A stretch of 39,701 bases of DNA from an uncultured Candidatus Saccharibacteria bacterium (GTDB lineage: Bacteria; Patescibacteriota; Minisyncoccia; Phycocordibacterales; CAIZLB01). Made by a program: the position numbers and the translations under genes. How positions within the stretch are numbered: position 1 is the first letter of the stretch; the number at the start of each line of letters is the position of its first letter. Below the pieces are notes generated by a model. That model worked only from the letters and a program-made list of their open reading frames with translations. It searched no databases and was not told the origin of the DNA. This document shows, one piece after another, positions 5,911-39,701 of the stretch. Location of the stretch: the NCBI GenBank assembly GCA_964532765.1, contig CAZHNC010000001.1, positions 1 through 39,701 on the forward strand, read 5' to 3'.

Positions 5911-5938
5911 AAAAAAAAGACTGGTTTTATTCAGTCTT
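5911..5938 (-). terminator. Intrinsic terminator after the antirepressor gene
   Basis: AAGACTG (5917..5923) pairs with CAGTCTT (5932..5938). The stop codon lies in the loop, and T8 follows on the coding strand. Confidence 0.65.
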
Positions 5939-6610
5939 TAAAAGTTTATTTATATAATCTACTCCCTTTTGGAATACAACTGTTTTAATGTGTATTTTAA
6001 CATCTCCACCATGAATATAACTTGTTTCTATAGTCCTAAAATATCCTCTGTCTATGTAAGTTTGATAAGGTTGATTTTTACTATCAAGAATTTTTCTTTC
6101 TCTTAAAATTTCAAACAGTTTGTTTCTTCCTAAATTCCTAATATTTAAAGTTTTTGCTAGTGACCCAATATCTATAGTGTCTTTACTATCAATTATTTGG
6201 TCGTAAAATTCAACTTTAGGCTTTTGGTACTCAATTTCTTTCTTGTAGTTTTCAATTTCTTTTTGTGCAATTTGTAAGGCTCTTGCCATTATTCGTGTAG
6301 GACTATTCCAAGCTTTTTCCAATTCTATCAAATAGTTTCTATACTCAAAAGCTTTTTTAGTTGGCATTTGCATAACTAAATTTTTAGCCATTTCTAGTGT
6401 GCAACAATAATCTTTAGTTTCGTTGCCGTTCGTCATTAAGACGAAGGACTGATAATCAATGTTTTCTACAAAGAATATATTTTCTTCTACATTTTTAATT
6501 ATCCATCTCGACCAGTTGCTCTTTTCCATTTCTGCACCCAAGTAAATTTCTTTTAAACTCTGTACAAATTGTGTGTTGTCCTTTTCTGTTACTTTGATTA
6601 ATTCTTGCAT
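5927..6610 (-). CDS. ant: Phage antirepressor (AntA-like N-terminal domain + KilAC C-terminal domain)
   Basis: N-terminal SNWSRWIIKNVEENIFFVENIDY resembles AntA. C-terminal SLAKTLNIRNLGRNKLFEILRERKILDSKNQPYQTYIDRGYF resembles KilAC. Confidence 0.8.
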   Translation of the reverse strand: MQELIKVTEKDNTQFVQSLKEIYLGAEMEKSNWSRWIIKNVEENIFFVENIDYQSFVLMTNGNETKDYCCTLEMAKNLVMQMPTKKAFEYRNYLIELEKAWNSPTRIMARALQIAQKEIENYKKEIEYQKPKVEFYDQIIDSKDTIDIGSLAKTLNIRNLGRNKLFEILRERKILDSKNQPYQTYIDRGYFRTIETSYIHGGDVKIHIKTVVFQKGVDYINKLLKTE

Positions 6611-7924: not shown

Positions 7925-9193
7925 TTAAAATAACTCTTCCCATGAAGTTGTTAAGGCCACATCACTGGCTCCAGTAGAAGTCATTATATAACATATATAA
8001 TCATTTGGTAAACTTCTTATTTCTTGATTAAGCAAATCTAATGTTTTGGAATCAACTTTAGATAGAGATACAGCAAAAGTAAGTTCTGCATCTGTTAAAT
8101 CAACTGTAGCAGTTGGATTAACTTCTATCATGGAATTAGTACTTATATCTGACCAGGTTCCACCTGTGGGGGTTGTTGCTAGTTTCCATCTTTCAAAAGT
8201 TACATTTTTAGTTCCATCTGTGGCTATTGTTAAATATTTTAATAGGCTTTCAACTCTATTTTCTACTGGCGTGGTTCCATAATTTTGTTTTAAATGAAAT
8301 AAATTTATTACATTATTTATGTTTGCTGTCAAAGTTTTTGTAGTTTTACTTGTAAAAATCCTGCTAGATATTATCCTATTATATCCTCCTATACTTCCGC
8401 AAGCCACTGAAGCACTTGAAACTTTAACATTTGTAGTATTTCCACTATTTACATTCTCTATACCTATTTTTAAATAAGGCAAACTTACATGAGGAGTTGT
8501 GTTTCTATTTTGATATTCTATAGTGTGGAAATTTACCCAACCTGTATCAGTTAGTACCCAATATTTAATTGACCCAGCACCTAAATATATAAAGCTTATT
8601 CTAAATACATTTAATTTTGTTGTATCTATTAAAAATTTACTTTCTCCAGTCCCATCTAATTTGTCCTGGTTGAAATCTTCTTGTTTTATAAATTCTAAAT
8701 CAACCGAATCTTTTCTTCTTAGTATCCCAAAGTCTAACCCATTAAATCCTATTGCATAACCGTTTAAATTGTCAAATAATCCTATAAATCTTTTGTTATT
8801 AACAACCGGACTATCCCATGTAGCCGTAAAAAAGCAAAACGCTTCTTGACCTGCTTTATAAGGTAAACTTCTTTTACTTCTACCTATAGAACTTCCACTT
8901 GCATTCGTTCCGCTTCCTAAAACTAGCATACTATTTGTATTTGAAATGGTTCCACCTAGAGCCAATATACTTTGCAGTTTTCTAGTGTCTGATTGATAAG
9001 CAAAATTAGAAACAAAGGCCATATTTACATCTCCAACTATTTGTTCTCCGAATCCACTTTTAAAATTACTTTCCCCCAAAGGGTTAGCATCTCCGTTAAT
9101 TGTTAAACCTTTCATAATCTTCTTGTTAGCTTCCATTTCAAGATACCCTGCGTTAATATCATCCAAATCCACACCATTAAAAATATCTGCCAT
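7925..9193 (-). CDS. Hypothetical beta-rich protein (422 aa) heading the head-morphogenesis transcription unit
   Basis: ORF track, GGGG RBS and own promoter. Composition and alternating patterns suggest a beta-sandwich. No family recognised. Confidence 0.55.
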   Translation of the reverse strand: MADIFNGVDLDDINAGYLEMEANKKIMKGLTINGDANPLGESNFKSGFGEQIVGDVNMAFVSNFAYQSDTRKLQSILALGGTISNTNSMLVLGSGTNASGSSIGRSKRSLPYKAGQEAFCFFTATWDSPVVNNKRFIGLFDNLNGYAIGFNGLDFGILRRKDSVDLEFIKQEDFNQDKLDGTGESKFLIDTTKLNVFRISFIYLGAGSIKYWVLTDTGWVNFHTIEYQNRNTTPHVSLPYLKIGIENVNSGNTTNVKVSSASVACGSIGGYNRIISSRIFTSKTTKTLTANINNVINLFHLKQNYGTTPVENRVESLLKYLTIATDGTKNVTFERWKLATTPTGGTWSDISTNSMIEVNPTATVDLTDAELTFAVSLSKVDSKTLDLLNQEIRSLPNDYICYIMTSTGASDVALTTSWEELF

Positions 9194-9214
9194 AATCTCA
9201 ACCCCTTTATTTTA

Positions 9215-9243
9215 ATTATAGTACTAATTAGTAATAAATTCAA
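9215..9243 (-). promoter_or_regulatory. Promoter of the 422-aa/gp7-like unit with the palindromic motif in the spacer
   Basis: Coding strand TTGAAT-17-TATAAT. ATTACTAATTAGTACT (9220..9235) overlaps the spacer and the -10. Confidence 0.5.
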
Positions 9244-9265
9244 ATAAAAAAGAGTAGAAATTAAT

Positions 9266-9397
9266 CTAGTCAAATATAAACTTAACTGTTAGCATAAATA
9301 AGCTATAAATCCATAAGCTTGTTATTGTCACAAATAAAATTTTTATACTTGGGTAGAATAGTTTACTGTTGTAGAATAATAGCCATAGTTTTTTCAT
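9266..9397 (-). CDS. Small hydrophobic protein (43 aa)
   Basis: Hand-translated MKKLWLLFYNSKLFYPSIKILFVTITSLWIYSLFMLTVKFIFD. Below the track cutoff. Confidence 0.35.
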   Translation of the reverse strand: MKKLWLLFYNSKLFYPSIKILFVTITSLWIYSLFMLTVKFIFD

Positions 9398-9532
9398 TAT
9401 ATCACACCTTGAAATTTACTGTCTGCATCATATGTATCTTTTATTTTTTTCATAAAAAGCACACTCCTCATTGTTAGTTAATAATTGTTTTTAATTCATT
9501 GTTAATAATCATTCTTATTAGATTCTACTTTG

Positions 9533-9612
9533 CTAGAGAGGGGGTCTAAAGCAAACTAGAGAGGGGGTGTCTACTAAAGTAGAGAGGCTACTAGAGCAAA
9601 CTAGAGAGGGTC
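9533..9612. repeat. Four iteron-like direct repeats (22-23 bp period)
   Basis: CTAGAGAGGGGGT at 9533 and 9556 (identical), GTAGAGAGGC at 9579, CTAGAGAGGGTC at 9601. A G-rich patch in an AT-rich genome that ends 3 nt from the RepA_N-like stop codon. Confidence 0.8.
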
Positions 9613-9614
9613 TT

Positions 9615-9977
9615 TTATTCTTCAACTAAATATGCTATATATATAAGTGTAGAAGAATCATACTGATGTTTCCTTTCTATCAGTGCTTTTTTCTCTAATA
9701 AATCAAGTGCATTAGATATTGGGGTATTAGTAACATTTAACTTGTCCTTTAGCTCGGTATAAGTGTATTTTACATATACCCCTTTATCATCATAATAACC
9801 ATTTTTAGCAGATAATTTACCCCTATCAAATAACAACACATAAATTTTAAAAGCTGTTTCAGTAATTTCTTTTCTCATAAACATATCAAATACAAGCTTC
9901 TGAACTTGATAATAAATAAATCCATGACCTTCTAAATCTTCAAATACTTCTTTAGTAAAATAATAGTGTTTTATCAT
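9615..9977 (-). CDS. RepA_N-like winged-helix protein (120 aa)
   Basis: AFKIYVLLFDRGKLSAKNGYYDDKGVYVKYTYTELKDKLNVTNTPISNALDLLEKKALIERK follows the RepA_N pattern (AK.lY.LL.DR..LS.kNgw.De.G.vY...t..EL). Confidence 0.65.
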   Translation of the reverse strand: MIKHYYFTKEVFEDLEGHGFIYYQVQKLVFDMFMRKEITETAFKIYVLLFDRGKLSAKNGYYDDKGVYVKYTYTELKDKLNVTNTPISNALDLLEKKALIERKHQYDSSTLIYIAYLVEE

Positions 9978-9980
9978 TCA

Positions 9981-10109
9981 TCAATTACTCTCCTCTATTT
10001 CAATCGTTATTCTTTCCCCTTTCTCAAGATTTAATTTTTCCATTACATCTTTAGGAATAACTACTCCAATACTTGCACCTACAGTTACTAATTTTAATGT
10101 TAATTTCAT
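9981..10109 (-). CDS. AbrB/SpoVT/MazE-type small DNA-binding protein (42 aa)
   Basis: Hand-translated MKLTLKLVTVGASIGVVIPKDVMEKLNLEKGERITIEIEESN behind the RBS GGAGGT. The V/IPKD...L.L..GD/E motif is present. Confidence 0.6.
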   Translation of the reverse strand: MKLTLKLVTVGASIGVVIPKDVMEKLNLEKGERITIEIEESN

Positions 10110-10135
10110 GTATTACCTCCTTTTTATTATAATTA

Positions 10136-10164
10136 ATTATAACTCTTTATAAATAAAAAGTCAA
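10136..10164 (-). promoter_or_regulatory. Near-consensus promoter of the AbrB-like/RepA_N-like unit
   Basis: Coding strand TTGACT-17-TATAAT. Confidence 0.6.
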
Positions 10165-10169
10165 CTAAA

Positions 10170-10197
10170 TAAAAAAGAGCAGTAATTAAACTACTCT
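10170..10197 (-). terminator. Intrinsic terminator after the 525-aa gene
   Basis: AGAGUAGU pairs with ACUGCUCU (one G-U pair). T6 follows on the coding strand. Confidence 0.55.
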
Positions 10198-10206
10198 TAG
10201 TGTAAA

Positions 10207-11784
10207 TTAATTTATAGTTTTTGTAACAACTTGTTCCCCTGTATATTGTCCACCTATTTGGTCATCCCAAACTAAATGATACTCTATTTCACTTCCTTGA
10301 GTAAGTTTTGAACTATCTATGTTCCATTCAAAATAGTATCTTTCTTTACCATCGAATATTAGCATAGATTTAAATTCTCCTATAGATGTTCTAATTACTA
10401 CAAAAGGTAGTCTTACTAGTTCCCATGACATAGCTTCTAAGTCTAAATATACTTTAGTTAATAAAGGAGTAGAAATTGATATATCATCAACACCATTTAA
10501 TCTTAAATATGGCTTCCACGGAATAGGTGCTTCTGGAACTACAGGAACAAATTTTAATATTTCAATTAATGTTTTTGAACTTCCATCAGGGTCGAGAAAG
10601 TAAATAAATTCTCCATCAGTATCGCTTATGTGATATGAAGCTGAATATCTTTCTAATAAATCTATGTTATCAACTCTTACTGCTATACCACGGCTTCCAC
10701 AATTAACAATAATAGAATCTTTTTCAGTTATACCCAGTATGTTTAACTCTAAAAGTTGTCTTGCTCCTGTAGGCACACCATCATCTTTATAAATTGATTT
10801 TGGAATTAAAGGCAAATTAGGCTCAATCCAAGGTTTCCAATCTCCATTATACATTTGCAATGTGTGCCTTCTTCCACTTCTTATATCTAAAGCCTCAAGT
10901 ATTTTATAGTTTTGGCTAGTATCGAAAACATTTACATAGAAATCATTATCTCCTACATTGTATCCAGTTGGCAAATTATCTGTCATTCCAAAACATCTAT
11001 ATAAACCACTTTTATCAAAGAAAGTTTGGAAATTTTTTGTTTTATCTTTGAATTTACCTATAAGATTATCTGTGAAATAATCTGAAAATTTACCTTGACC
11101 AGTAAACAATTGGTCATACACATCATAATCCCAATAATTTAACCATCTCCAGCATAAAGTAGTTCCTTTAAAAATATTACCACTACCAAATTTTACACCA
11201 AATTTACCATCAGGATATCCATCATCTACGTTATGTGTTATGTATGCAGATGCTCCCCAACTGCTATAAATAAAATCAAATTTAATTGGGTTTATGACAT
11301 CACTATCATGGTTTACAAACTCTATAGTGTCTTTATTCACTGTTAGATTTTTGTAGTCATCACCATACCAAGTTAAGCATGTTTGGATTGATTTATCATT
11401 TATAGTATTATTATTAAACCAAAGGATAATTGGCTTTTCATCTGTTGGGTCATCTTGAATAACATAGGAATACTCTCTTATTATATTTTTATCACTATAA
11501 ACTACAGGGTTAGTATTTCCAGTACACCCATATGAAGCGTTTATTTCACTTCTTATAAGAGATTTATCCTCTCCTACAGCATGCTTAATATTTAGATTAT
11601 ATTCCCTCAAATCTAAATAATTAGCGTCAACCCATTCTCCAGTTGACCTTAGGTATCTTCCTTGAGGAGAATCTTCTACACCTTGATTGTATTCTCCATT
11701 ATCAGATAAAAATTTTGTACCTTTCCCATCAAATATGAAATATATACCTCTATTTTTACAGCTTATCTTTTTTTTATTTTTCAT
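10207..11784 (-). CDS. Hypothetical protein (525 aa), W/Y/D/N/G-rich, function unknown
   Basis: ORF track. Second gene of a promoter/terminator-bounded two-gene cassette. No family recognised. Confidence 0.6.
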   Translation of the reverse strand: MKNKKKISCKNRGIYFIFDGKGTKFLSDNGEYNQGVEDSPQGRYLRSTGEWVDANYLDLREYNLNIKHAVGEDKSLIRSEINASYGCTGNTNPVVYSDKNIIREYSYVIQDDPTDEKPIILWFNNNTINDKSIQTCLTWYGDDYKNLTVNKDTIEFVNHDSDVINPIKFDFIYSSWGASAYITHNVDDGYPDGKFGVKFGSGNIFKGTTLCWRWLNYWDYDVYDQLFTGQGKFSDYFTDNLIGKFKDKTKNFQTFFDKSGLYRCFGMTDNLPTGYNVGDNDFYVNVFDTSQNYKILEALDIRSGRRHTLQMYNGDWKPWIEPNLPLIPKSIYKDDGVPTGARQLLELNILGITEKDSIIVNCGSRGIAVRVDNIDLLERYSASYHISDTDGEFIYFLDPDGSSKTLIEILKFVPVVPEAPIPWKPYLRLNGVDDISISTPLLTKVYLDLEAMSWELVRLPFVVIRTSIGEFKSMLIFDGKERYYFEWNIDSSKLTQGSEIEYHLVWDDQIGGQYTGEQVVTKTIN

Positions 11785-11796
11785 ATAGCACCTCCA

Positions 11797-12246
11797 TTAA
11801 GCTTCAAAAGTTTGAACTAAATCAGAATCATATTTTATCATTCTTGTATCTCTAAACTCAATACTCAATGTATAAGTTCTGCTTGATAAAGTAGAAAAAT
11901 CCATTGGAGACAAAATATAATATCCAGTTTCATCTTTTTCAACGTCCAAACTAATCCAACCACCACTGTAATCAATAGTTATAGTAGCTTTATCAAATAA
12001 ACTCTGATTTTGTATAGCTAAAGTAATATTTATCCTTTCATTTTCTGCTTTCTTAGGTAAAAAACTTGCATTAAAACTAGTTATAATTGGATAAGAAAAG
12101 TTTGTTCCTGGACTTATTCCACCTTCAATTACTTGTACACAAGCCATCGCTATTAGTGTGGTTGTTGCTAACTCGCTTGTTTCTAACCCTAGAATCTTCA
12201 TCGCTGCCATTCGTTCAAGTGTACTTGTTGCTACATTATTATCCAT
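11797..12246 (-). CDS. Hypothetical protein (149 aa)
   Basis: ORF track, trimmed to the ATG at 12246, which is properly spaced from the GGGGG RBS. Confidence 0.55.
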   Translation of the reverse strand: MDNNVATSTLERMAAMKILGLETSELATTTLIAMACVQVIEGGISPGTNFSYPIITSFNASFLPKKAENERINITLAIQNQSLFDKATITIDYSGGWISLDVEKDETGYYILSPMDFSTLSSRTYTLSIEFRDTRMIKYDSDLVQTFEA

Positions 12247-12275
12247 ACATACCATACCCCCTTTTTTATATCTTA

Positions 12276-12304
12276 ATTATATAACTAATATATAATAAAA
12301 TCAA
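12276..12304 (-). promoter_or_regulatory. Candidate promoter of the 149-aa/525-aa cassette
   Basis: Coding strand TTGATT-17-TATAAT. Confidence 0.45.
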
Positions 12305-12323
12305 TTGACTAAATAAAGTAAAT

Positions 12324-12346
12324 AAAAAAAGACTAGTTTCCTAGTC
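12324..12346 (-). terminator. Intrinsic terminator ending the small-gene operon
   Basis: GACTAG-GAAA-CTAGTC hairpin followed by T7 on the coding strand. Confidence 0.65.
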
Positions 12347-12347
12347 C

Positions 12348-12428
12348 TCAACTAAAATCATAAAAAAATATATACAAAGCACAAATTACAACAAATAACC
12401 ATTCCCATTTTGACATTTTACTATTCAT
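12348..12428 (-). CDS. Possible 26-aa hydrophobic peptide
   Basis: MNSKMSKWEWLFVVICALYIFFYDFS. Start overlaps the upstream stop as TAATG. Confidence 0.25.
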   Translation of the reverse strand: MNSKMSKWEWLFVVICALYIFFYDFS

Positions 12429-12679
12429 TAATCCCCTTCAATCTCAACTATTATATCATACTTCTTCATCAAATCCTCTAATTCTAACTTATCAATATTT
12501 ACTTTCTCATCGTCAACCTCTTTAAAGTATCTAATACGTCCACTAGATTGTTTTATGGCAGTTATCTTATACTTTTCCCTCTCTTGAATCTTATTGCTTA
12601 TATAACCAATCCTATACAGTAATAAGCATATACCTATTACACACAATACTATTAAAAAATCTATAAATCTACTTCTCAT
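12428..12679 (-). CDS. Membrane-anchored small protein (83 aa)
   Basis: ORF track. N-terminal hydrophobic segment FIDFLIVLCVIGICLLLYRIGY followed by a charged domain. Confidence 0.5.
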   Translation of the reverse strand: MRSRFIDFLIVLCVIGICLLLYRIGYISNKIQEREKYKITAIKQSSGRIRYFKEVDDEKVNIDKLELEDLMKKYDIIVEIEGD

Positions 12680-12688
12680 TAAAACCTC

Positions 12689-12883
12689 CTAGTACCTATT
12701 CGATATCTCATCATATAAATAATTGCTTTGTGTCCTTCTTATTCTTTTCACATATGCTTTAAGTATATCAACATTAACATATTTAAACTCTTTTTTCAAT
12801 TGTTTCCAGGTACAATCATTTTTTAATCTTTCTTGTATCTTAAGGCAATTTGCACAACCTATCACATAAACTGGGTCAATCAT
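12689..12883 (-). CDS. Hypothetical protein (64 aa)
   Basis: ORF track. Tightly packed in the operon. Confidence 0.45.
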   Translation of the reverse strand: MIDPVYVIGCANCLKIQERLKNDCTWKQLKKEFKYVNVDILKAYVKRIRRTQSNYLYDEISNRY

Positions 12884-13110
12884 TATTTTTCTCCTTTTAT
12901 TTCAATAAATTTTGGTTTAATTTTAGAATTTATCCATTTTTCTTGGTTTAAATCTTCGTGTACATCTTTATAATCAAGCTTTCTATCTTTACCATACTTT
13001 TGTGGATTCTCATAAACATCAATCAATTGTTTAGGCATATTATTGTCTAACTTTAAATCAATTTTTGATAATTTATCCATGATTTCTTCAATCCATTTAT
13101 CTTTTTCCAT
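12883..13110 (-). CDS. Hypothetical protein (75 aa)
   Basis: ORF track. 1-nt overlaps with neighbours. Confidence 0.45.
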   Translation of the reverse strand: MEKDKWIEEIMDKLSKIDLKLDNNMPKQLIDVYENPQKYGKDRKLDYKDVHEDLNQEKWINSKIKPKFIEIKGEK

Positions 13111-13485
13111 TTAAACCTCCAAAAGTTCAGGATTTTCATAAATGTTGCCTATAACTTTAAAATTTTCATTTATACAATGTTTTAATATACTTCCAGTTTC
13201 ATTTAATCTTTCAAATATAAAACAACCTTCTTTAAATTTAATTATACCTTTATGAAATCCTTTGTTTCCATATGAACAATATTCTTTACATATATCTCCC
13301 TCGTAAATCTCTACACCGTTAATGTCTTTTAAGCCTGTCCATAAATCTTTTGATATAATTTCATAATTTTTTATATCAAATAATTTTTCTAATCCTTTTT
13401 CTATTTGTTTTAAAAAATACCATTTATAATGAATTTTATTGTCAAATTTTCCTTTTAAATTATATCTAAACTTAATTTCTCTCAT
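13111..13485 (-). CDS. YopX-family protein
   Basis: MREIKFR...DINGVEIYEGDI...VIGNIYENPELLE is the characteristic YopX pattern. Confidence 0.85.
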   Translation of the reverse strand: MREIKFRYNLKGKFDNKIHYKWYFLKQIEKGLEKLFDIKNYEIISKDLWTGLKDINGVEIYEGDICKEYCSYGNKGFHKGIIKFKEGCFIFERLNETGSILKHCINENFKVIGNIYENPELLEV

Positions 13486-13637
13486 TATATACCTCCTACA
13501 CTCTTTCTAATCTCCATAAATCTTTCTTTAACTTCGTGTAATTCAAAACTATCGTGTATTTTTAACCAGGTTCCAACGATAAACTTGTGGAATCCTTCTT
13601 TCTGTTTGTATATATTATTGTTGTGGTAGAATATCAT
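13485..13637 (-). CDS. Hypothetical protein (50 aa)
   Basis: Hand-translated MIFYHNNNIYKQKEGFHKFIVGTW... The stop overlaps the YopX start. Confidence 0.35.
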   Translation of the reverse strand: MIFYHNNNIYKQKEGFHKFIVGTWLKIHDSFELHEVKERFMEIRKSVGGI

Positions 13638-13859
13638 TTAGTCCTCCTTTGGTGGTTCAGGTAAATCCATCCAATACGTTATAGTTATTATTTCATCAAA
13701 ATTACTCGGTATACACCATCTAGGCTCTTTTCCTTTTATTTTTTCATATCTATAACACCTAACTTCTTTGTATCCCCACATAATGCTACCTATATTGCAA
13801 TAACATATATAATCATCAGTGTATTGTGGTAATTTATCATTTATTTTTATCCATTCCAT
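13638..13859 (-). CDS. DUF551-like protein
   Basis: MEWIKINDKLP...ITYWMDLPEPPKED matches the DUF551 pattern (W...d.lP......thWmpLPePP). Confidence 0.7.
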   Translation of the reverse strand: MEWIKINDKLPQYTDDYICYCNIGSIMWGYKEVRCYRYEKIKGKEPRWCIPSNFDEIITITYWMDLPEPPKED

Positions 13860-14201
13860 TTAAACCACCTCAAACTTATCAAAATAAATTATCTCTTCAT
13901 CCCACATTTTATGCTCTCCTACTACATCAAGCTCCCAAGTTAGCCCGTTGTTGCATACAGTTTTTATTTTAGCAACAAATACCAAATCAACATCAAATAT
14001 AAGCTCGTTATAAGACTTTTTAGTAGTTTCTAGGCACAAGTTTGTAAATTCCTCTTTATCAAAGTAAATTGCTCCTGTAATGCTTTTAGCTTCGTATATC
14101 GGCATACCTTGAAAAGTCGTTTCTCCTTCTACTTGTTCGCTAATTAAATTTATATCCTTGTCTATTACCTCTAGTTTATTTAAATTAACTTTTACTTTCA
14201 T
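13860..14201 (-). CDS. Hypothetical protein (113 aa)
   Basis: ORF track. Confidence 0.5.
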   Translation of the reverse strand: MKVKVNLNKLEVIDKDINLISEQVEGETTFQGMPIYEAKSITGAIYFDKEEFTNLCLETTKKSYNELIFDVDLVFVAKIKTVCNNGLTWELDVVGEHKMWDEEIIYFDKFEVV

Positions 14202-14340
14202 TTTTACCTCCGATTAGTTTTATTAAACTTTGTGCAGTTCTTTCTCTTTTAAATATAACTTTTAACCTTAGAAAAGCTTGTTTAAGTTCTTCTCTTTCCT
14301 CTTCAGAATTGCATATTATCTGTAACGGGTATCTTTTCAT
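14185..14340 (-). CDS. Hypothetical protein (51 aa)
   Basis: Hand-translated MKRYPLQIICNSEEEREELKQAF... Overlaps the next gene start. Confidence 0.3.
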   Translation of the reverse strand: MKRYPLQIICNSEEEREELKQAFLRLKVIFKRERTAQSLIKLIGGKNESKS

Positions 14341-14370
14341 TTAAACCTCCTTAAAATTGATTTAAAAAAT

Positions 14371-14667
14371 TTAGTAGTAACAATGAGTTGTTAAGTTTTC
14401 TTCGTTTAATTCAACTATAAATTCAAATTCTTCTACTCTTAATTTGATGTCTTGATTTCCGTATTCGTTTTGTTTTCTGTTAATTTCTTTTAATCCTACT
14501 ATGTTTTTATTTAATCTTCTTAATGTAACTATAGGTCTAAACTCTGCAAAAGTTCTTTCACTTTGATAGTCACTGTCAGAAAACCATTGTTTATTTTTTT
14601 CTGTTAATTCTATTTTACCATTTCCGTTCATTCCAAACTCTTTTAAAAAACTTATTACTTTTTCCAT
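14371..14667 (-). CDS. Hypothetical protein (98 aa), first gene of the small-gene operon
   Basis: ORF track. RBS GGAGGT upstream. Confidence 0.5.
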   Translation of the reverse strand: MEKVISFLKEFGMNGNGKIELTEKNKQWFSDSDYQSERTFAEFRPIVTLRRLNKNIVGLKEINRKQNEYGNQDIKLRVEEFEFIVELNEENLTTHCYY

Positions 14668-14709
14668 TTTAATTACCTCCGTTTTATTTGTTTTGTTTCT
14701 TATATTAAG

Positions 14710-25530: not shown

Positions 25531-26235
25531 CTATACATTCCATATTGGAATTGATTTTTGTTTTGATGTAGTTGTAAATTGTTGTTTTATTTCTTTAGGA
25601 AAAATACCTTTATATCCTTTTGCTATAGAAAAATCTATACTATCGGTAAGATGTTTTTCATCAATATAATCTTTTCCTAATTGATTTAATGTTTTTGTTA
25701 TGCTCAACATAGTTTTAACTGGATTTTTTATTTCTTCTTTATAATCAAACCATTCTTTGAAACTTTCTTTTAAAAATTCAGATAAATTTAGCTTTTCAAG
25801 TTCTTCTGAGAATAATTGTTTATTAAGTTGTTTATTTTTACTTTTTTTATTAATACTTTCTTTATTACTTGAAAAATTTTGAATACTAGTATTTAATTTT
25901 TTTAAAGGCAAGTCTTTAAAATTTTTAAATACTAGTCTTTGAATAGTTTCATAATCAATTTTAAAATATCTTTTCCTAGGCATACCTTTATTTTGTTGAT
26001 ATAAAGCTCCAATTTCTATTAATTGATTAATACATAAAGTTTGCTTATTATTACTTAATCCTGTTAATTCTTCTAAAGTTTCAGAAGTTTGATAAAACCA
26101 ACCTTCTTCATCTGCCATCATGCTTTCTGCTTCTGATAAATTACTTAATAAAAAAGCAGTTTCGATTCCAAATTCTTTGACTATAGACTTATTCAAAACC
26201 CAATAACCACTAGACATTAAAAGTTCTTTAATCAA
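25531..26235 (-). CDS. Replisome organizer / DnaD-like replication initiation protein
   Basis: N-terminal winged-helix-like region (ETLEELTGLSNNKQTLCINQLIEIGAL). The C-terminus ...WFDYK...DSIDFSIAKGYKGIF resembles the conserved phage C-terminal Phg_2220_C-type domain. Confidence 0.55.
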   Translation of the reverse strand: MIKELLMSSGYWVLNKSIVKEFGIETAFLLSNLSEAESMMADEEGWFYQTSETLEELTGLSNNKQTLCINQLIEIGALYQQNKGMPRKRYFKIDYETIQRLVFKNFKDLPLKKLNTSIQNFSSNKESINKKSKNKQLNKQLFSEELEKLNLSEFLKESFKEWFDYKEEIKNPVKTMLSITKTLNQLGKDYIDEKHLTDSIDFSIAKGYKGIFPKEIKQQFTTTSKQKSIPIWNV

Positions 26236-26247
26236 CTATTAAACCCC

Positions 26248-26376
26248 CTATTTAGCTTTTAAAGCTTTTTCTCTTAAATATGCAGATAAAAACTTGCCTT
26301 CTTTTTTAGCTTTTTCTTCTAAAATTTTTAACTCTTTTTCACTAAGTCTAACACCTATTACTTTTTCTTTGTTCAT
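26248..26376 (-). CDS. Ribbon-helix-helix-like small protein (42 aa)
   Basis: Hand-translated MNKEKVIGVRLSEKELKILEEKAKKEGKFLSAYLREKALKAK. This is the beta-alpha-alpha pattern of CopG/MobC-type RHH proteins. Confidence 0.5.
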   Translation of the reverse strand: MNKEKVIGVRLSEKELKILEEKAKKEGKFLSAYLREKALKAK

Positions 26377-27644: not shown

Positions 27645-27806
27645 TTATTTCCCCCTATCCAACAAAATTTTCTCTCCATCAAATACAAAAGTTAATTTAT
27701 CCTTATCTTTTATATTACACATTCTAGCAATGTCTTTTGGTATGTTTAAAACTAACTGACCTTTTTTGCTTAATTGTTGAACTGTTGATGTTTTTTCTAT
27801 GTTCAT
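27645..27806 (-). CDS. AbrB/SpoVT-type small DNA-binding protein (53 aa), first leftward gene of the switch
   Basis: Hand-translated MNIEKTSTVQQLSKKGQLVLNIPKDIARMCNIKDKDKLTFVFDGEKILLDRGK. RBS AAGGAG. Carries the IPKD motif seen in the 9981..10109 paralogue. Confidence 0.55.
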   Translation of the reverse strand: MNIEKTSTVQQLSKKGQLVLNIPKDIARMCNIKDKDKLTFVFDGEKILLDRGK

Positions 27807-27827: not shown

Positions 27828-27911
27828 ATATTAACACAAAAAAAATAATTTGTCAATATTCAAAAAAATATTAAAATTAATATTGACATTAACTATTTTT
27901 AGGTATATAAT
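27828..27911. promoter_or_regulatory. Divergent back-to-back promoters with operator-like symmetry (genetic switch)
   Basis: Rightward TTGACA(27883..27888)-17-TATAAT(27906..27911). Leftward TTGACA(rc 27851..27856)-17-TAATAT(rc 27828..27833). Inverted repeat TGTCAATATT/AATATTGACA. AATATT boxes at 27855, 27867 and 27879. Confidence 0.7.
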
Positions 27912-29749: not shown

Positions 29750-30682
29750 ATGAGAAAAGCAAGTCACGAGAAAACACTTCACTACACAATAGGAGAAGCA
29801 GGAGGGCAAATAGGGGAAATATTCAAACAGAATAAATATGATGTTATAGCTTATAATACAGCTAAAGCTGATATGGATAAGTTAAAACAAATTACTGATA
29901 AAAGACTTATAGGAATCACAGAAGGAAGTGGAAAAGATAGAAAACTTTCTGCAAAATCTTTTGAGGATAACATAGATAAAATAAGAACTTCTGTTACACA
30001 AGATATGTCAAACAAGGAAGTTGCTTTTGTTTATACTTCTATGAGTGGTGGTACAGGAAGTGGATCCGCAATAAGACTAGCTAAACTGATTAACCAATTA
30101 GGTAAAAAAGCTATCATAGTTGCTGTAAAGCCTGTCAATGGAGAAATAGGAAAAGCTGAAAATAACTATTTGCAATTTTTAGCTGAATTTGAAAAAGATA
30201 AAAATGATCTAGTGTTAAATATGTTTGAGAATGAATTTGATTATGTAAAAATTAACAAGTACATCTATGAAACAATTGATAATTTCTTAAATCCTGTAGG
30301 AGAAAGTATCACAACTTTTGACTTTATGGACTCTTTAAAAGCTTTTAGAAGTGGTTATTGTGTAATGGCTACTGGAAACACTAAAGAAATTATAATAAAC
30401 TCAATGTTTGAATTAAACAAGTCTGAAACTTGTGTGTTAATCTCTCAAAGCCCACAATCTGTAGATGGATACCAAGAAATGACAAAGAGAAATTACGGTT
30501 ACCTGGATAGACAATACTACGAATACAGAGTTCAAGAAAATCCTAAGTGGACTATATTGATTGGTGGTTTACAGTTACCAGTTGAAACTATTTCAGTTTT
30601 AGCAAAAGAAGTTAATCAGAAAGCACAATTGCTTAATGCTAAAAAAGATGCTTTAACTTTCAACATTTTAGGTATAGATTAA
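29750..30682 (+). CDS. Tubulin/FtsZ-superfamily GTPase (PhuZ/TubZ-like, 310 aa)
   Basis: Loops in canonical order: T1 TIGEAGGQIGEIF, AYNTAKAD, T3 GITEGSGKD, T4 SMSGGTGSGS (fits the tubulin signature [SAG]GGTG[SA]G), T5 VKPVNGE, T7 TFDFMD...GYCVMATG. Confidence 0.85.
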   Translation: MRKASHEKTLHYTIGEAGGQIGEIFKQNKYDVIAYNTAKADMDKLKQITDKRLIGITEGSGKDRKLSAKSFEDNIDKIRTSVTQDMSNKEVAFVYTSMSGGTGSGSAIRLAKLINQLGKKAIIVAVKPVNGEIGKAENNYLQFLAEFEKDKNDLVLNMFENEFDYVKINKYIYETIDNFLNPVGESITTFDFMDSLKAFRSGYCVMATGNTKEIIINSMFELNKSETCVLISQSPQSVDGYQEMTKRNYGYLDRQYYEYRVQENPKWTILIGGLQLPVETISVLAKEVNQKAQLLNAKKDALTFNILGID

Positions 30683-30691
30683 GGAGTATAT

Positions 30692-31177
30692 ATGAAACAC
30701 CTACTAATATTTTTAATTTTATCAATTTCGTGTTTAGCTGAAACTTTTAGTTTTGGCTATTCACTTAATACAACTCATATAAAGTCGCCTAGTCGTGATT
30801 ATGACTTTGTAGAGGATAATCAAGTATTTACACTAGAGAAACGCAATGGAAGCGAAATAAAAGGTTTTACGCACTTTACAAACAGTTTTGGAAATGAAAG
30901 TGCAATGATATACATAGGACAAATTAAAGATAAGAATAATAAATGTTTGTATTTTAAATACTCTTTTGGATTGTGTAAAGGTTATAATGAAGTTGATAAA
31001 TTACCGAGCAAAACTATTAAAAATATGTATTGGGAGTTTAGAAATTATACTGTATTTTATAAAGATTATTCAATAGTTCCAATGGTTTCAGTAGGTTATC
31101 AATTCAGCAAGGATTTAGCATTAGAAACACTTTTAGTAGGAAATGCTTTTGTTACTAATATTAAAATAACTTTTTAG
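30692..31177 (+). CDS. Small secreted outer-membrane beta-barrel candidate (161 aa)
   Basis: Signal peptide MKHLLIFLILSISCLA. C-terminal beta-signal FVTNIKITF with alternating hydrophobic residues and a terminal Phe. Mature size ~145 aa fits an 8-stranded barrel. Confidence 0.55.
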   Translation: MKHLLIFLILSISCLAETFSFGYSLNTTHIKSPSRDYDFVEDNQVFTLEKRNGSEIKGFTHFTNSFGNESAMIYIGQIKDKNNKCLYFKYSFGLCKGYNEVDKLPSKTIKNMYWEFRNYTVFYKDYSIVPMVSVGYQFSKDLALETLLVGNAFVTNIKITF

Positions 31178-37652: not shown

Positions 37653-39701
37653 TAGTAAGACCTCCTTGCGTTTCCTGTTTGATTAAATCTACTTTGATTT
37701 TGACTAGTTGCCACCATTTCGCTAAAATCTTTTGAGTAGTTGTTCTCAATTCTATATATAGTTTGATAAGTTTGGCCGTAACTTGCATTACTAGATTGAA
37801 ACTCTGCACTAGCTACTTTTAATCCAGTAGGTAAATTTTTTGTTGAAACTTGGTTTAGTTGTTCAGTTGCTGAACTTGCTGCAAGTCCTAATCGTTCTAA
37901 AATTTCTTGTAATTTTTCGCTAGAGGCTCCATAAATTTCGGTATAAGCTGCCAACATTTCTTCAAAACTCATACCTTTAAAATCTATTCCTAAATTAATT
38001 CCTTCAGTTGTTAATTCGTTTAGCAAAGCTTCAGATATTGCACCACTAAAGTTTTTATTAAGAGCTTCAAAGGCTTGTTGGCTAAAGAAAGCTTCTATCA
38101 AACCATTTTTAAACATATCTGTAACACTTTCAGATATACTTCCACCACTTTTAAATACATCTACCATGTTAGAAATAAAGTCTTGACTAGATAGACTTAA
38201 AGCTTCTGCAAACCCATCAATATTTGTCTGCCATGCTTCAGCAATCAATTTATTTATTTCTGCCATAGCTCCAGTTACATCATAACCACTTATATATGAC
38301 TTTTCTTTACCCCAGTCTGACAAATCTCTGTAAGTTTCTCTTTTTGCGTATTTACCAAAGATTGCGTCAACATCAATACCACTATAACCACCACCAGCAA
38401 GAGCTTTTTTAATCGCTGTAGTGTCGACTGTTGCGTTTTTAGAACCCCAAGAAACACTACCACCACCAAGTATACCACTTATTATGTCGAAAGGTGCAGT
38501 TAATAGACCTTGATTAAGTCCACCACCTCCAACACCACCAGCCATTAGATCACTTGGTTTTGTTAATTGTGCGAAAGATATCTTTTGTCCTAAAGTAAAA
38601 TCTTCAACTGACTTTTTGAAACTTTCAACAGCTTCTTGGAATTTAGTATTAGCTTCATTTTGCTTTTCTTCCATGTCACTATCATTTAAAAAACTATCTA
38701 ATTGATTAACTAAAGCTAAACCACTTGAAATACTCCCTAAAACATTTCCACTCATTAAGCTTGTAGCTAGGTTTCCACCAGCACCAATTAAACTTGCCAT
38801 AGCTCCTAGAAGGTCATCTTCAAATAATGTTGCTAACTCTCCAGCTATTTTAGAAGTTTCAGAAAATGCATCGCCAACTTTAGCTATTTTTTTTCTGTTT
38901 TCTTCTTGAATCCTTTGAGCTTCTTCGTTTGTTTTTTTAATGTTTTCTAATTCTTTGTTATTTTTTTCTTCCTGTAGTTTTATTTCTTTTTCTTTAGCTT
39001 CGTTTTCTTTATCTTGTTTTTTCTTTAGATTGTCCTCAAACTTTTGTTGTTGTCTTTTTTCAAAGTTATCGTAATCTTGCATAGCCTTTTCAAATCCAGC
39101 TTCTAATACTACATTAGTTTCTAAATCTGTAACAGTTGTTCCACCTGTACCAGTTGAGCTACTTCCTCCTGTACCTGTGCCTTTATTATTGTTTATATCG
39201 TTTACCCATTCATTATCTGTGAAAACTTTAAAATCTCCACTTTTACGCAAATCATTTAATAAAGTATCTTGATTTCCTGTATCTAGTCCTAAAGTTCCAA
39301 AAGTCATATTATAAGTTTTACTTGCTGCCGTTCCAGCTTCTTTATAACTTCCGCCTTTTTCAAGTATACTTCTAGCCGTTCCAAGTGCTGCAGTAACTGA
39401 AATTTGTTTTTTAACTTCTATACTCATTCCTTTTGTAAACTTTACATAAAAACTTAAAGTATCAAATAAATCTTGTCCTATTTCTGATTTTGTCTGTCTA
39501 CTAGAATTTATTAATTCTTTAAAACTTCCTTTAATTCCATCTGTAATATTTTCAATACTAGTTGCAGTTGTTTCTAAAGGTTTTTCTATTCCTAAAGCCC
39601 AATTTCCAACTTTTTCAAATATTCCACTAAACTGTTCAAAACCATTGGCTATATTAGTTAATGATTCTCCAAAAGTATCTACGTAACCTAGTGTTACAAA
39701 C
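37652..39701 (-). CDS. Tail tape measure protein, C-terminal part (continuation of 1..914)
   Basis: The frame of the tracked ORF 37652..39427 stays open upstream to 39701 (...FVTLGYVDTFGESLTNIANGF...KGMSIEVKKQ). Contains a coiled-coil K/E-rich centre and Gly-rich tracts. Confidence 0.9.
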   Translation of the reverse strand, partial: FVTLGYVDTFGESLTNIANGFEQFSGIFEKVGNWALGIEKPLETTATSIENITDGIKGSFKELINSSRQTKSEIGQDLFDTLSFYVKFTKGMSIEVKKQISVTAALGTARSILEKGGSYKEAGTAASKTYNMTFGTLGLDTGNQDTLLNDLRKSGDFKVFTDNEWVNDINNNKGTGTGGSSSTGTGGTTVTDLETNVVLEAGFEKAMQDYDNFEKRQQQKFEDNLKKKQDKENEAKEKEIKLQEEKNNKELENIKKTNEEAQRIQEENRKKIAKVGDAFSETSKIAGELATLFEDDLLGAMASLIGAGGNLATSLMSGNVLGSISSGLALVNQLDSFLNDSDMEEKQNEANTKFQEAVESFKKSVEDFTLGQKISFAQLTKPSDLMAGGVGGGGLNQGLLTAPFDIISGILGGGSVSWGSKNATVDTTAIKKALAGGGYSGIDVDAIFGKYAKRETYRDLSDWGKEKSYISGYDVTGAMAEINKLIAEAWQTNIDGFAEALSLSSQDFISNMVDVFKSGGSISESVTDMFKNGLIEAFFSQQAFEALNKNFSGAISEALLNELTTEGINLGIDFKGMSFEEMLAAYTEIYGASSEKLQEILERLGLAASSATEQLNQVSTKNLPTGLKVASAEFQSSNASYGQTYQTIYRIENNYSKDFSEMVATSQNQSRFNQTGNARRSY

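Follow-up and report, generated by a model that had tools for sequence, protein, structure and literature searches.

Does a phage genome that encodes a replication module of its own carry a plasmid-type origin as well? The question is raised by a small cassette in contig CAZHNC010000001.1 of assembly GCA_964532765.1, assigned to an uncultured Candidatus Saccharibacteria bacterium. The whole stretch analyzed (39,701 nucleotides, the window) appears to be an entire phage genome, about 40 kb long. Its genes for packaging and the virion are terS, terL, portal, head, and tail; those for recombination are Erf, Sipho_Gp157, and a RusA-like resolvase; and a tubulin-family GTPase gene and an antirepressor gene are also present. 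The cassette genes all lie on the minus strand: an open reading frame (ORF) for a 42-aa AbrB/MazE-fold regulator (10109..9981) is followed, 3 nt later, by an ORF for a 120-aa RepA_N-type protein (9977..9615) and then by four direct repeats, or iterons (9524..9610), that we delimited by Tandem Repeats Finder (TRF), sequence inspection, and 8-mer counts. The original prediction saw here the architecture of an iteron-controlled plasmid origin or centromere, perhaps a second replicon. Our analysis suggests that the cassette is very probably a conserved mobile module derived from RepA_N replicons, with cognate iteron binding. That it fires as an origin is plausible, and we hold this part of the reading only tentatively.

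Both protein assignments of the original prediction were borne out. The 120-aa ORF scored 35.5 bits against the Pfam family PF06970 (RepA_N), above the gathering cut-off of 30, and a phmmer search matched its residues 9-114 to the crystal entries 4PTA, 4PT7, 4PQL, and 5KBJ (E 4e-7 to 2e-5), which are N-terminal domains (NTDs) of staphylococcal RepA initiators, 5KBJ being a DNA complex. When an AlphaFold model of the protein (pLDDT 88.5) was compared with the PDB by Foldseek, the top seven matches were all RepA NTD chains (4PQL, 5KBJ, 4PT7, and 4PTA), with TM scores of 0.52-0.58 and root-mean-square deviations of 1.8-3.4 Å over 80-85 columns; MarR-like winged helices ranked far below them. A HMMER scan of 1.8 billion representative proteins returned 2179 relatives. 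Outside the immediate family, most of the top relatives are 260-360 aa long and carry the domain at about residues 8-110, so the 120-aa protein corresponds to the DNA-binding domain alone. By sequence and modeled fold, it is a stand-alone RepA_N winged-helix NTD that is predicted to bind iterons.

The staphylococcal plasmid initiators pSK41 and pTZ2162 RepA, with their Rep boxes, are the closest known parallel. In pSK41, the first 120 residues of RepA make up the NTD, which binds four Rep boxes in the central part of rep, while replication requires the C-terminal domain, which contacts the DnaG primase (PMC5703833). Homology between these NTDs and the cassette protein extends over the full length of the domain, the size of 120 residues is shared, and both systems have four iterons with A-tract semi-palindromes immediately 3' of the NTD-coding sequence (PMC5703833, PMC7145576). 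In contrast, the cassette has neither linker nor C-terminal domain, its iterons are intergenic and start 1-4 nt past the gene's stop, a 54-bp AT-rich tract follows them, upstream control would fall to a small AbrB or ribbon-helix-helix protein, and the whole is accessory cargo inside a phage genome rather than a plasmid's sole replicon. Because the C-terminal domain, which is genus-specific in RepA_N initiators, is missing, we classify the protein as a RepA_N-derived NTD-only variant, not a standard initiator: the RepA_N domain was recognized throughout, and the full-length architecture was not found. The family also stands apart by similarity, with the best match outside it at about 100 bits versus 217 within it. 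The best phage or plasmid matches were at most 42% identical, and the searches turned up no full-length RepA_N protein whose NTD is closely related.

The array itself agreed with the original prediction in position and spacing, with repeats at 9533, 9556, 9579, and 9601 and periods of 23, 23, and 22 bp. CTAGAGAGGGGGT is present exactly at 9533 and 9556 and in degenerate form at 9579 (GTAGAGAGGCTAC) and 9601 (CTAGAGAGGGTCT), and the 8-mer TAGAGAGG lies at 9534, 9557, 9580, and 9602. TRF reported a period of 23, 3.4 copies, and a score of 79. Four of the seven occurrences of TAGAGAGG in the window fall within the 78-bp array, about one occurrence is expected per 39.7 kb, and none of 100 shuffles reached seven. 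The G-rich patch noted earlier is also real: the array has 47% GC versus 29% for the genome, and only 0.02% of 87-nt windows are equally GC-rich. The repeats do lie directly after the stop codon of the 120-aa gene (9615-9617), as predicted; the distance, put at 3 nt, varies from 1 to 4 nt with the choice of repeat end.

Two exact and two degenerate copies were thus correctly recognized, but the repeat unit is not a simple 13-mer. On the plus strand, the units are u1 (9524-9544), u2 (9545-9567), u3 (9568-9587), and u4 (9588-9610), the first reaching left to 9524 (TCTACTTTGCTAGAG). An A/T tract lies at the center of each unit, which can be read as a semi-palindrome or as two TAGAG-like pentamers spaced 10 bp apart; the window has TCTAC-TAAA-GTAGA at 9570-9583, for instance, and the homologous locus L019 has CTCTAC-TAAA-GTAGAG. 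RepA_N iterons have been described as semi-palindromic direct repeats in which inverted repeats converge on a poly-A tract (PMC7145576), and the window repeats fit this pattern. In a full-length relative (L023), four repeats at about 22 bp lie just after the NTD, in the linker region, and in the relatives P0012 and P0013 the corresponding linker contains peptide motifs that repeat. The only visible target of the 120-aa protein is the array in cis, because no iteron-like site was found elsewhere in the window, the cassette promoter included. Autoregulation by the winged-helix protein was considered and found unsupported, as its own promoter has no iteron site.

How conserved is this arrangement? 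Nine homologues of the 120-aa protein, 58-91% identical to it, were found among 5.8 billion proteins, which marks the NTD-only family as rare. Eight of the nine are 117-120 aa long and the other is a 109-aa fragment; all nine have a precomputed PF06970 match. We recovered 13 loci encoding homologues and judged their features as far as each sequence extends. A small regulator gene, the NTD gene, and iterons occurred in that order in 13/13, with three or four iterons directly after the stop codon, and an AT tract, a ribosome-binding site, and an unrelated cargo gene followed in the loci that extend downstream. Upstream DNA reaches the promoter in eight loci. By eye, TTGAC(T/A)-17-TATAAT or TATACT was found at the same place in L001, L002, L004, L005, L015, L016, and L019, and the L018 promoter is a close variant, TTGACA-17-TATTAT. 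No close DNA relatives were found among deposited phages, and a pattern scan confirmed no relatives of the 120-aa protein in IMG/VR, GTDB genomes, or JGI metagenomes.

The NTD gene and the iterons appear to be under purifying selection. The ratio of nonsynonymous to synonymous divergence (dN/dS) of the NTD gene was 0.08-0.34 in all between-clade pairs; between L002 and L005, synonymous divergence reached 1.24, yet the iteron arrays are 95% identical. Between protein clades, the left half-site varies and the right half, TAGAG, is kept. Since the truncated layout is common to all clades, protein and repeats diversified together in the NTD-only state, which argues for a current function in cis.

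The 525-aa gene that precedes the cassette ends at an intrinsic terminator (10198 to 10175, minus strand) made up of a 9-pair stem and then TTTTATTT. No other terminator-like site was found within 9000-10400, and this one forms the upstream edge of the cassette transcription unit. Directly after it lies the TTGACT-17-TATAAT promoter that the original prediction had named (10164 to 10136, minus strand), of sigma-70 type with 11/12 consensus matches. A perfect 16-bp palindrome, TTATAATTAATTATAA (10127..10142), is visible in the sequence and overlaps the -10 box, and it is a candidate operator at which the AbrB-like protein may act. From the cassette promoter to the AT tract, the window showed no terminator-like site, nor did it show one between the cassette genes and the 18-aa ORF that follows them, and a search for RNA elements gave no meaningful Rfam match in 9100-10300. 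A weak promoter-like site, TTTAGA-17-TAGAAT, overlaps the last iteron.

The 42-aa regulator scored 37.2 bits against PF04014 (MazE/AbrB; cut-off 24.7) and is a DNA-binding protein of the swapped-hairpin fold, probably an autorepressor akin to the copy-control ('Cop') repressors of plasmids. Its place is held in some homologous cassettes by one of two ribbon-helix-helix proteins, so that AbrB-like, RHH_3-like, and NikA-like ribbon-helix-helix forms are all represented. In the 11 loci that reach that far, the NTD gene is preceded, at a distance of 3-4 nt, by a small gene of the AbrB-fold or ribbon-helix-helix type. The promoter and the small-regulator gene are exchanged together between loci, and the winged-helix protein P0007 was found with two different regulators.

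Beyond the iterons, the tract at 9470..9523 is 54 bp long, has 15% GC, and falls in the lowest 2% of 54-nt windows. TRF found in it a second repeat set (9468-9520) of 14-bp period, about four copies of TTAATAACAATGA on the minus strand. Between clades, the tract is 67-87% identical; its position is constant in all loci whose sequence reaches it, and it opens with a conserved motif, GTAGAATCTAATAA, in the homologous loci. No promoter within it is conserved across loci. The tract, which is largely conserved in sequence as well as in position, is a candidate DNA-unwinding element.

Every locus that extends far enough has a co-oriented cargo ORF with a strong ribosome-binding site 60-75 bp past the last iteron, and these cargo genes differ between loci and are mutually unrelated. 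In the window, an 18-aa ORF (9397..9453, minus strand; MKKIKDTYDADSKFQGVI) with GAGGAG as ribosome-binding site is followed by an ORF for a very hydrophobic 43-aa product (9266..9397, minus strand; MKKLWLLFYNSKLFYPSIKILFVTITSLWIYSLFMLTVKFIFD), whose start overlaps the stop of the 18-aa ORF. Both are variable cargo without family matches (none in Pfam or PHROG for the 43-aa ORF), and neither was found in the closest cassette relatives, L010 and L011, which have a different gene there. In one sub-clade, the cassette is immediately followed by a gene for a 163-aa nuclease of T5orf172/MUG113 type (GIY-YIG-like; L013 671-1162, L014 585-1073, L016 794-1285, and L017 706-1197); it could encode a free-standing homing endonuclease or a functional partner. 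A promoter-like TTGAAT-17-TATAAT (9215..9243, minus strand) precedes the next gene, for a 422-aa virion protein.

In layout, the cassette appears to resemble a cop-rep-ori region. The likeness to a plasmid replication region that the original prediction had seen holds for the repressor-type gene, the RepA_N-type protein, and the four iterons, which are moreover followed by the AT tract, and fails for the missing C-terminal domain. Among origins of this general layout are the Inc18 (pAMbeta1, pIP501) and pMV158-type replicons, in which, as with the probable repressor gene and the candidate origin of the cassette, a small repressor gene lies upstream of rep and the ori directly downstream; the rep transcript enters the ori, and at pAMbeta1 it is required and provides the primer (PMC5703833). 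These replicons differ in using full-length Reps of PriCT_1 or Rep_2 rather than RepA_N type, and in place of four iterons pAMbeta1 has one 25-bp RepE site. The RepA of the Vibrio cholerae satellite PLE, with its ori, is itself a RepA_N initiator: there, too, the element is phage-associated and the iterons are intergenic; they are bound by a RepA_N-type NTD, as is predicted for the cassette, and NTD and origin co-vary as a module swapped between elements (PMC7145576, PMC8263062). PLE RepA, in contrast, keeps a C-terminal domain that is conserved across PLEs, and PLE is a satellite in a Gram-negative host, whereas the cassette lies inside a complete low-GC phage.

We tentatively favor the view that the cassette functions as an accessory cis-acting origin-like site, that is, a secondary or plasmid-mode origin. 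In such a mechanism, the sigma-70-type promoter would drive the AbrB-fold protein, which would repress that promoter through the palindrome at the -10 box. The same transcript would encode the NTD, and NTD dimers would occupy the four iterons beyond the stop codon, where they may bend and bridge DNA as their pSK41 and pTZ2162 homologues do (5KBJ). The resulting nucleoprotein complex would adjoin the 54-bp AT tract, which would also be crossed by the cassette transcript because no terminator-like site lies between. Since the primase-binding C-terminal domain is missing, firing would need either transcript priming or the replisome of the phage. The first route, with the transcript both priming and melting, would be that of the pAMbeta1 ori, which lies immediately downstream of repE and requires transcription through it; there, a stalled transcript primes Pol I, and PriA then assembles the replisome (PMC5703833). 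A route of the pAMbeta1 type needs no primase-binding domain. The second route would use the phage's own replisome, much as replication by PLE RepA depends on the helper phage (PMC7145576, PMC8263062). As to lifestyle, 47 ORFs, among them every ORF of at least 150 aa, were compared with PHROG and Pfam and gave no integrase, which we count in favor of an origin. We also count in its favor a 38.6-kb Apilactobacillus plasmid on which a full-length RepA_N gene adjoins parA and which has holin and lysozyme genes too.

The main replication module of the phage, at 26.6-24.7 kb, is separate from the cassette, as the original prediction had stated, and its repeats differ in sequence from the cassette iterons. 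It comprises a promoter, a 57-aa ORF, a 42-aa ribbon-helix-helix ORF, a 234-aa initiator, and a 261-aa DUF6475 protein. Its layout is that of the cassette, a parallel that speaks for an origin, with a promoter, a small ribbon-helix-helix gene, and an initiator containing 23-nt repeats about 100 codons in; unlike the NTD, the 234-aa main initiator is full-length and is followed by the DUF6475 partner, and no homology between the two proteins was detectable. The 234-aa initiator had no sequence match in the PDB. The 23-nt repeats in its gene, 3.2 copies at 25868-25940, are a candidate for the main origin. The 42-aa ribbon-helix-helix ORF directly upstream (26248-26376, minus strand) resembles one of the small regulators of the homologous cassettes, with a shared ...LSAY.R motif.

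A sister phage, scaffold_593, bears on whether the cassette is core. It shares with the window TerL (82-89% identical), the 422-aa virion protein (80%), and the tubulin (72%), and it keeps the tubulin gene, its 161-aa neighbor, and the main replication module, in which an AbrB-like 44-aa ORF precedes the initiator in place of the ribbon-helix-helix ORF. Neither the cassette, the 525-aa gene, nor an iteron array was found in the 36.5 kb examined of its 38.1-kb contig. Because it is absent from the sister phage, the cassette is accessory cargo, not core.

Several observations count against an origin-like function. The C-terminal domain is missing in 10/10 family members, and the window has no separate ORF resembling it, save for a very weak match between that domain and the main initiator of 234 aa (E 0.0095, with a tiny database). 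Near the cassette, DnaA boxes are lacking, and their window-wide count is at chance level. Most of the array in the window clade is inverted relative to the AT tract, which would be unusual if iteron polarity mattered for unwinding. Compared with all other clades, this one (the window, L010, and L011) has three and a half units in reverse orientation, namely u2-u4 and the G-run of u1, with the breakpoint inside the last unit (alignment scores 83 versus 17). Iteron number also varies with the same encoded protein, three copies in L018 versus four in L016. Finally, the sister phage lacks the cassette, which makes it dispensable for that type of phage, and in different phages it occupies different genome positions, about 1.6 kb upstream of the terminase region in L001 and after the lysis genes in L002, with its own promoter, as is typical of accessory cargo. 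With the C-terminal domain absent here and in every homologue, the second replicon of the original prediction is not shown. As to the inverted units, an invertible switch was considered and rejected, since four independent assemblies of the window phage are identical across the array.

Could the lone NTD instead act against the replication of others? In this explanation, which we consider somewhat unlikely, it would be a dominant-negative origin blocker or handcuffing protein that causes interference or incompatibility in competing phages, satellites, or plasmids with related iterons, and the resident iterons would buffer or titrate it. The NTD-only state of every family member speaks for this, as does the accessory nature of the cassette, with its own promoter, variable position, and absence from the sister phage. 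Tetramers, which RepA NTDs are known to form (PMC5703833), would allow two iteron-bearing DNAs to be bridged. There is also a precedent in the origin-directed nuclease Odn (Gp88) of phage ICP1, likewise a phage RepA_N-like NTD detached from its initiator, which is fused to a T5orf172 nuclease and cuts the origin of a satellite (PMC8263062); the T5orf172/MUG113 gene directly downstream of the cassette in L013, L014, L016, and L017 adds to the likeness. However, Odn is a single fused polypeptide whose target iterons lie in another genome, whereas the cassette NTD stands alone and has cognate-looking iterons next to its own gene, and the nuclease neighbor is confined to one sub-clade that does not include the window. 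No replicon with matching iterons and no closely related full-length initiator was found. Moreover, the iterons are conserved beyond the synonymous divergence of the adjoining gene, which points to a function in cis and not to leftover sites.

Transcriptional control, with the iteron-bound NTD as a roadblock or operator that sets transcription into the cargo gene from the cassette promoter or from the weak promoter over the last iteron, strikes us as quite unlikely. It would make sense of the co-oriented cargo ORF that always lies 60-75 bp past the last iteron where sequence extends, of the lack of an intervening terminator in the window, of the weak TTTAGA-17-TAGAAT site, and of the inversion, which semi-palindromic sites tolerate; stalling of RNA polymerase at a Rep-bound ori has been proposed for pAMbeta1 (PMC5703833). 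But four phased sites and a conserved AT tract exceed what a simple operator needs, and the -10-like TAGAAT is not conserved (TAGAGA in L001 and TCGATT in L002). The cargo genes are unrelated, with no common regulated function evident, and origin binding is the one role established for the protein family.

The other half of the original prediction, a centromere at which the winged-helix protein and repeats form a partition complex moved by a tubulin homologue, of type III or another type, fared poorly and is very improbable. Like the type III systems of TubZ, TubR, and tubC (pBtoxis and the Clostridium botulinum prophage c-st), the phage combines a small winged-helix protein, direct repeats, and a tubulin-family GTPase in the same genome; TubR is likewise a small winged-helix protein that binds direct repeats (PMC6009700), and the missing integrase would suit such a system. 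In contrast to that system, the fold is that of RepA NTDs, which are described among the 50 PDB structural matches listed for the protein, whereas TubR is not. Furthermore, tubC has been described as preceding tubR in all cases, in one operon with tubZ (PMC6009700), whereas the cassette repeats follow the winged-helix gene and are 20 kb away from the tubulin gene, which is on the other strand. No ParA/ParB gene was found, and the sister phage keeps the tubulin and its 161-aa neighbor without cassette or iterons. On fold, gene order, and the sister-phage comparison, we rejected a TubR/tubC system.

It is hardly credible that the repeats are a pac site recognized by TerS, the case that the original prediction named against itself, or that the cassette is a decaying, functionless rep remnant: repeats near packaging genes can be pac sites, the L001 cassette lies about 1.6 kb upstream of the terminase region, truncated rep genes occur, and P0011 looks like a shortened P0012, but the array follows a winged-helix gene and not terS, lies 9 kb from terS in the window and after lysis genes in L002, and is absent from a sister phage with 82-89% identical TerL (on position and this comparison, we rejected the pac site), while purifying selection on gene and iterons, a fixed length of 117-120 aa, and a stop position conserved across clades speak against decay.

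The surroundings of the cassette and the rest of the genome gave further observations. The stretch from the portal gene to the 422-aa virion gene (9200-14700 in the window; 6430-10000 in L024, from the sister phage) lies within the head-gene block and carries variable cargo; the window has YopX, several small ORFs, the unannotated 525-aa protein, and the cassette there, and the sister phage has a different gene set. The promoter-like site at 9215..9243 marks the downstream edge of this region, because sequence shared with the sister phage resumes at the terminator/promoter just upstream of the 422-aa gene (L024 9925-10000). A second swap site for accessory cargo lies at 5927-6610 (minus strand), where the window has an AntA/KilAC antirepressor gene between the minor head protein gene and a 188-aa ORF without family match, and the sister phage an N6/N4 DNA methyltransferase gene (L024 12799-13533). 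The sister phage also has a split terL (L024 2070-4611), with a 244-aa and a 335-aa ORF, corresponding to TerL residues 1-247 and 249-578, separated by a 170-aa HNH_3 endonuclease gene; TerL of the window is a single 578-aa ORF.

The tubulin pair (29750-31177, plus strand; L026 10001-11432) consists of a 310-aa tubulin/FtsZ-family GTPase (29750-30682), which scored 43.9 bits against PF00091 (cut-off 33) with a weak PhuZ PHROG match, and the conserved 161-aa neighbor. The pair is kept though the flanking recombination genes are swapped (Erf/Gp157 in the window, RecT/DUF3799 in the sister phage). A tblastn search with it against 50,697 deposited phages at E 1e-5 gave no match, and no TubR-like gene or centromere was evident next to the tubulin gene.

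A second AbrB-like ORF, of 53 aa (27645-27806, minus strand; ...GQLVLNIPKDIARMCNIKDKDKLTF...), and a 12-bp tandem repeat (27855-27897) lie in a divergent region between the leftward and rightward gene blocks that may be the genetic switch of the phage; no CI-type repressor was identified in the window. ORFs run off both window ends (1-917; 37655-39701, minus strand), and L006 shows a 993-aa product across the junction; the contig, which has no terminal overlap, is probably a circularly permuted, complete or near-complete genome whose ends fall within a long gene adjoining the tail genes. Elsewhere, a 38.6-kb Apilactobacillus plasmid (L022; NZ_CP093364.1, 23995-32243) has holin and lysozyme genes and, divergent from parA, a 302-aa RepA_N-like gene annotated as a MarR regulator; it looks like a phage-plasmid that uses a full-length RepA_N replicon.

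What might such a cassette mean for its carriers? We found no literature description of a conserved NTD-only RepA_N phage family with external iterons of its own. A broader idea, doubtful in our view, is that a self-contained phage cassette works without a replisome-recruiting domain, as either a minimal transcript-primed origin or an origin-mimic immunity device. The former would let an integrase-less phage persist or over-replicate, and the latter would capture or block the replication machinery of competing elements; in both versions, the small regulator and the cargo, the T5orf172 nucleases included, would be exchangeable parts.

The cassettes indicate that the parts of a replication module are shuffled between phages, from the regulator type to the orientation and number of iterons and the cargo. 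How RepA_N initiators start replication is unknown (PMC7145576); the host-specific step is presumed to lie with the C-terminal domain. An NTD and iterons that have been naturally selected without this domain would offer a simple test of what the two can do alone, candidate abilities being DNA melting, DNA pairing, origin blocking, and priming together with transcription. Should the cassette fire, phages that lack an integrase would have in it a minimal origin module; should it block, it would join ICP1 Odn as the second natural example of a phage turning an origin-binding domain on competitors.

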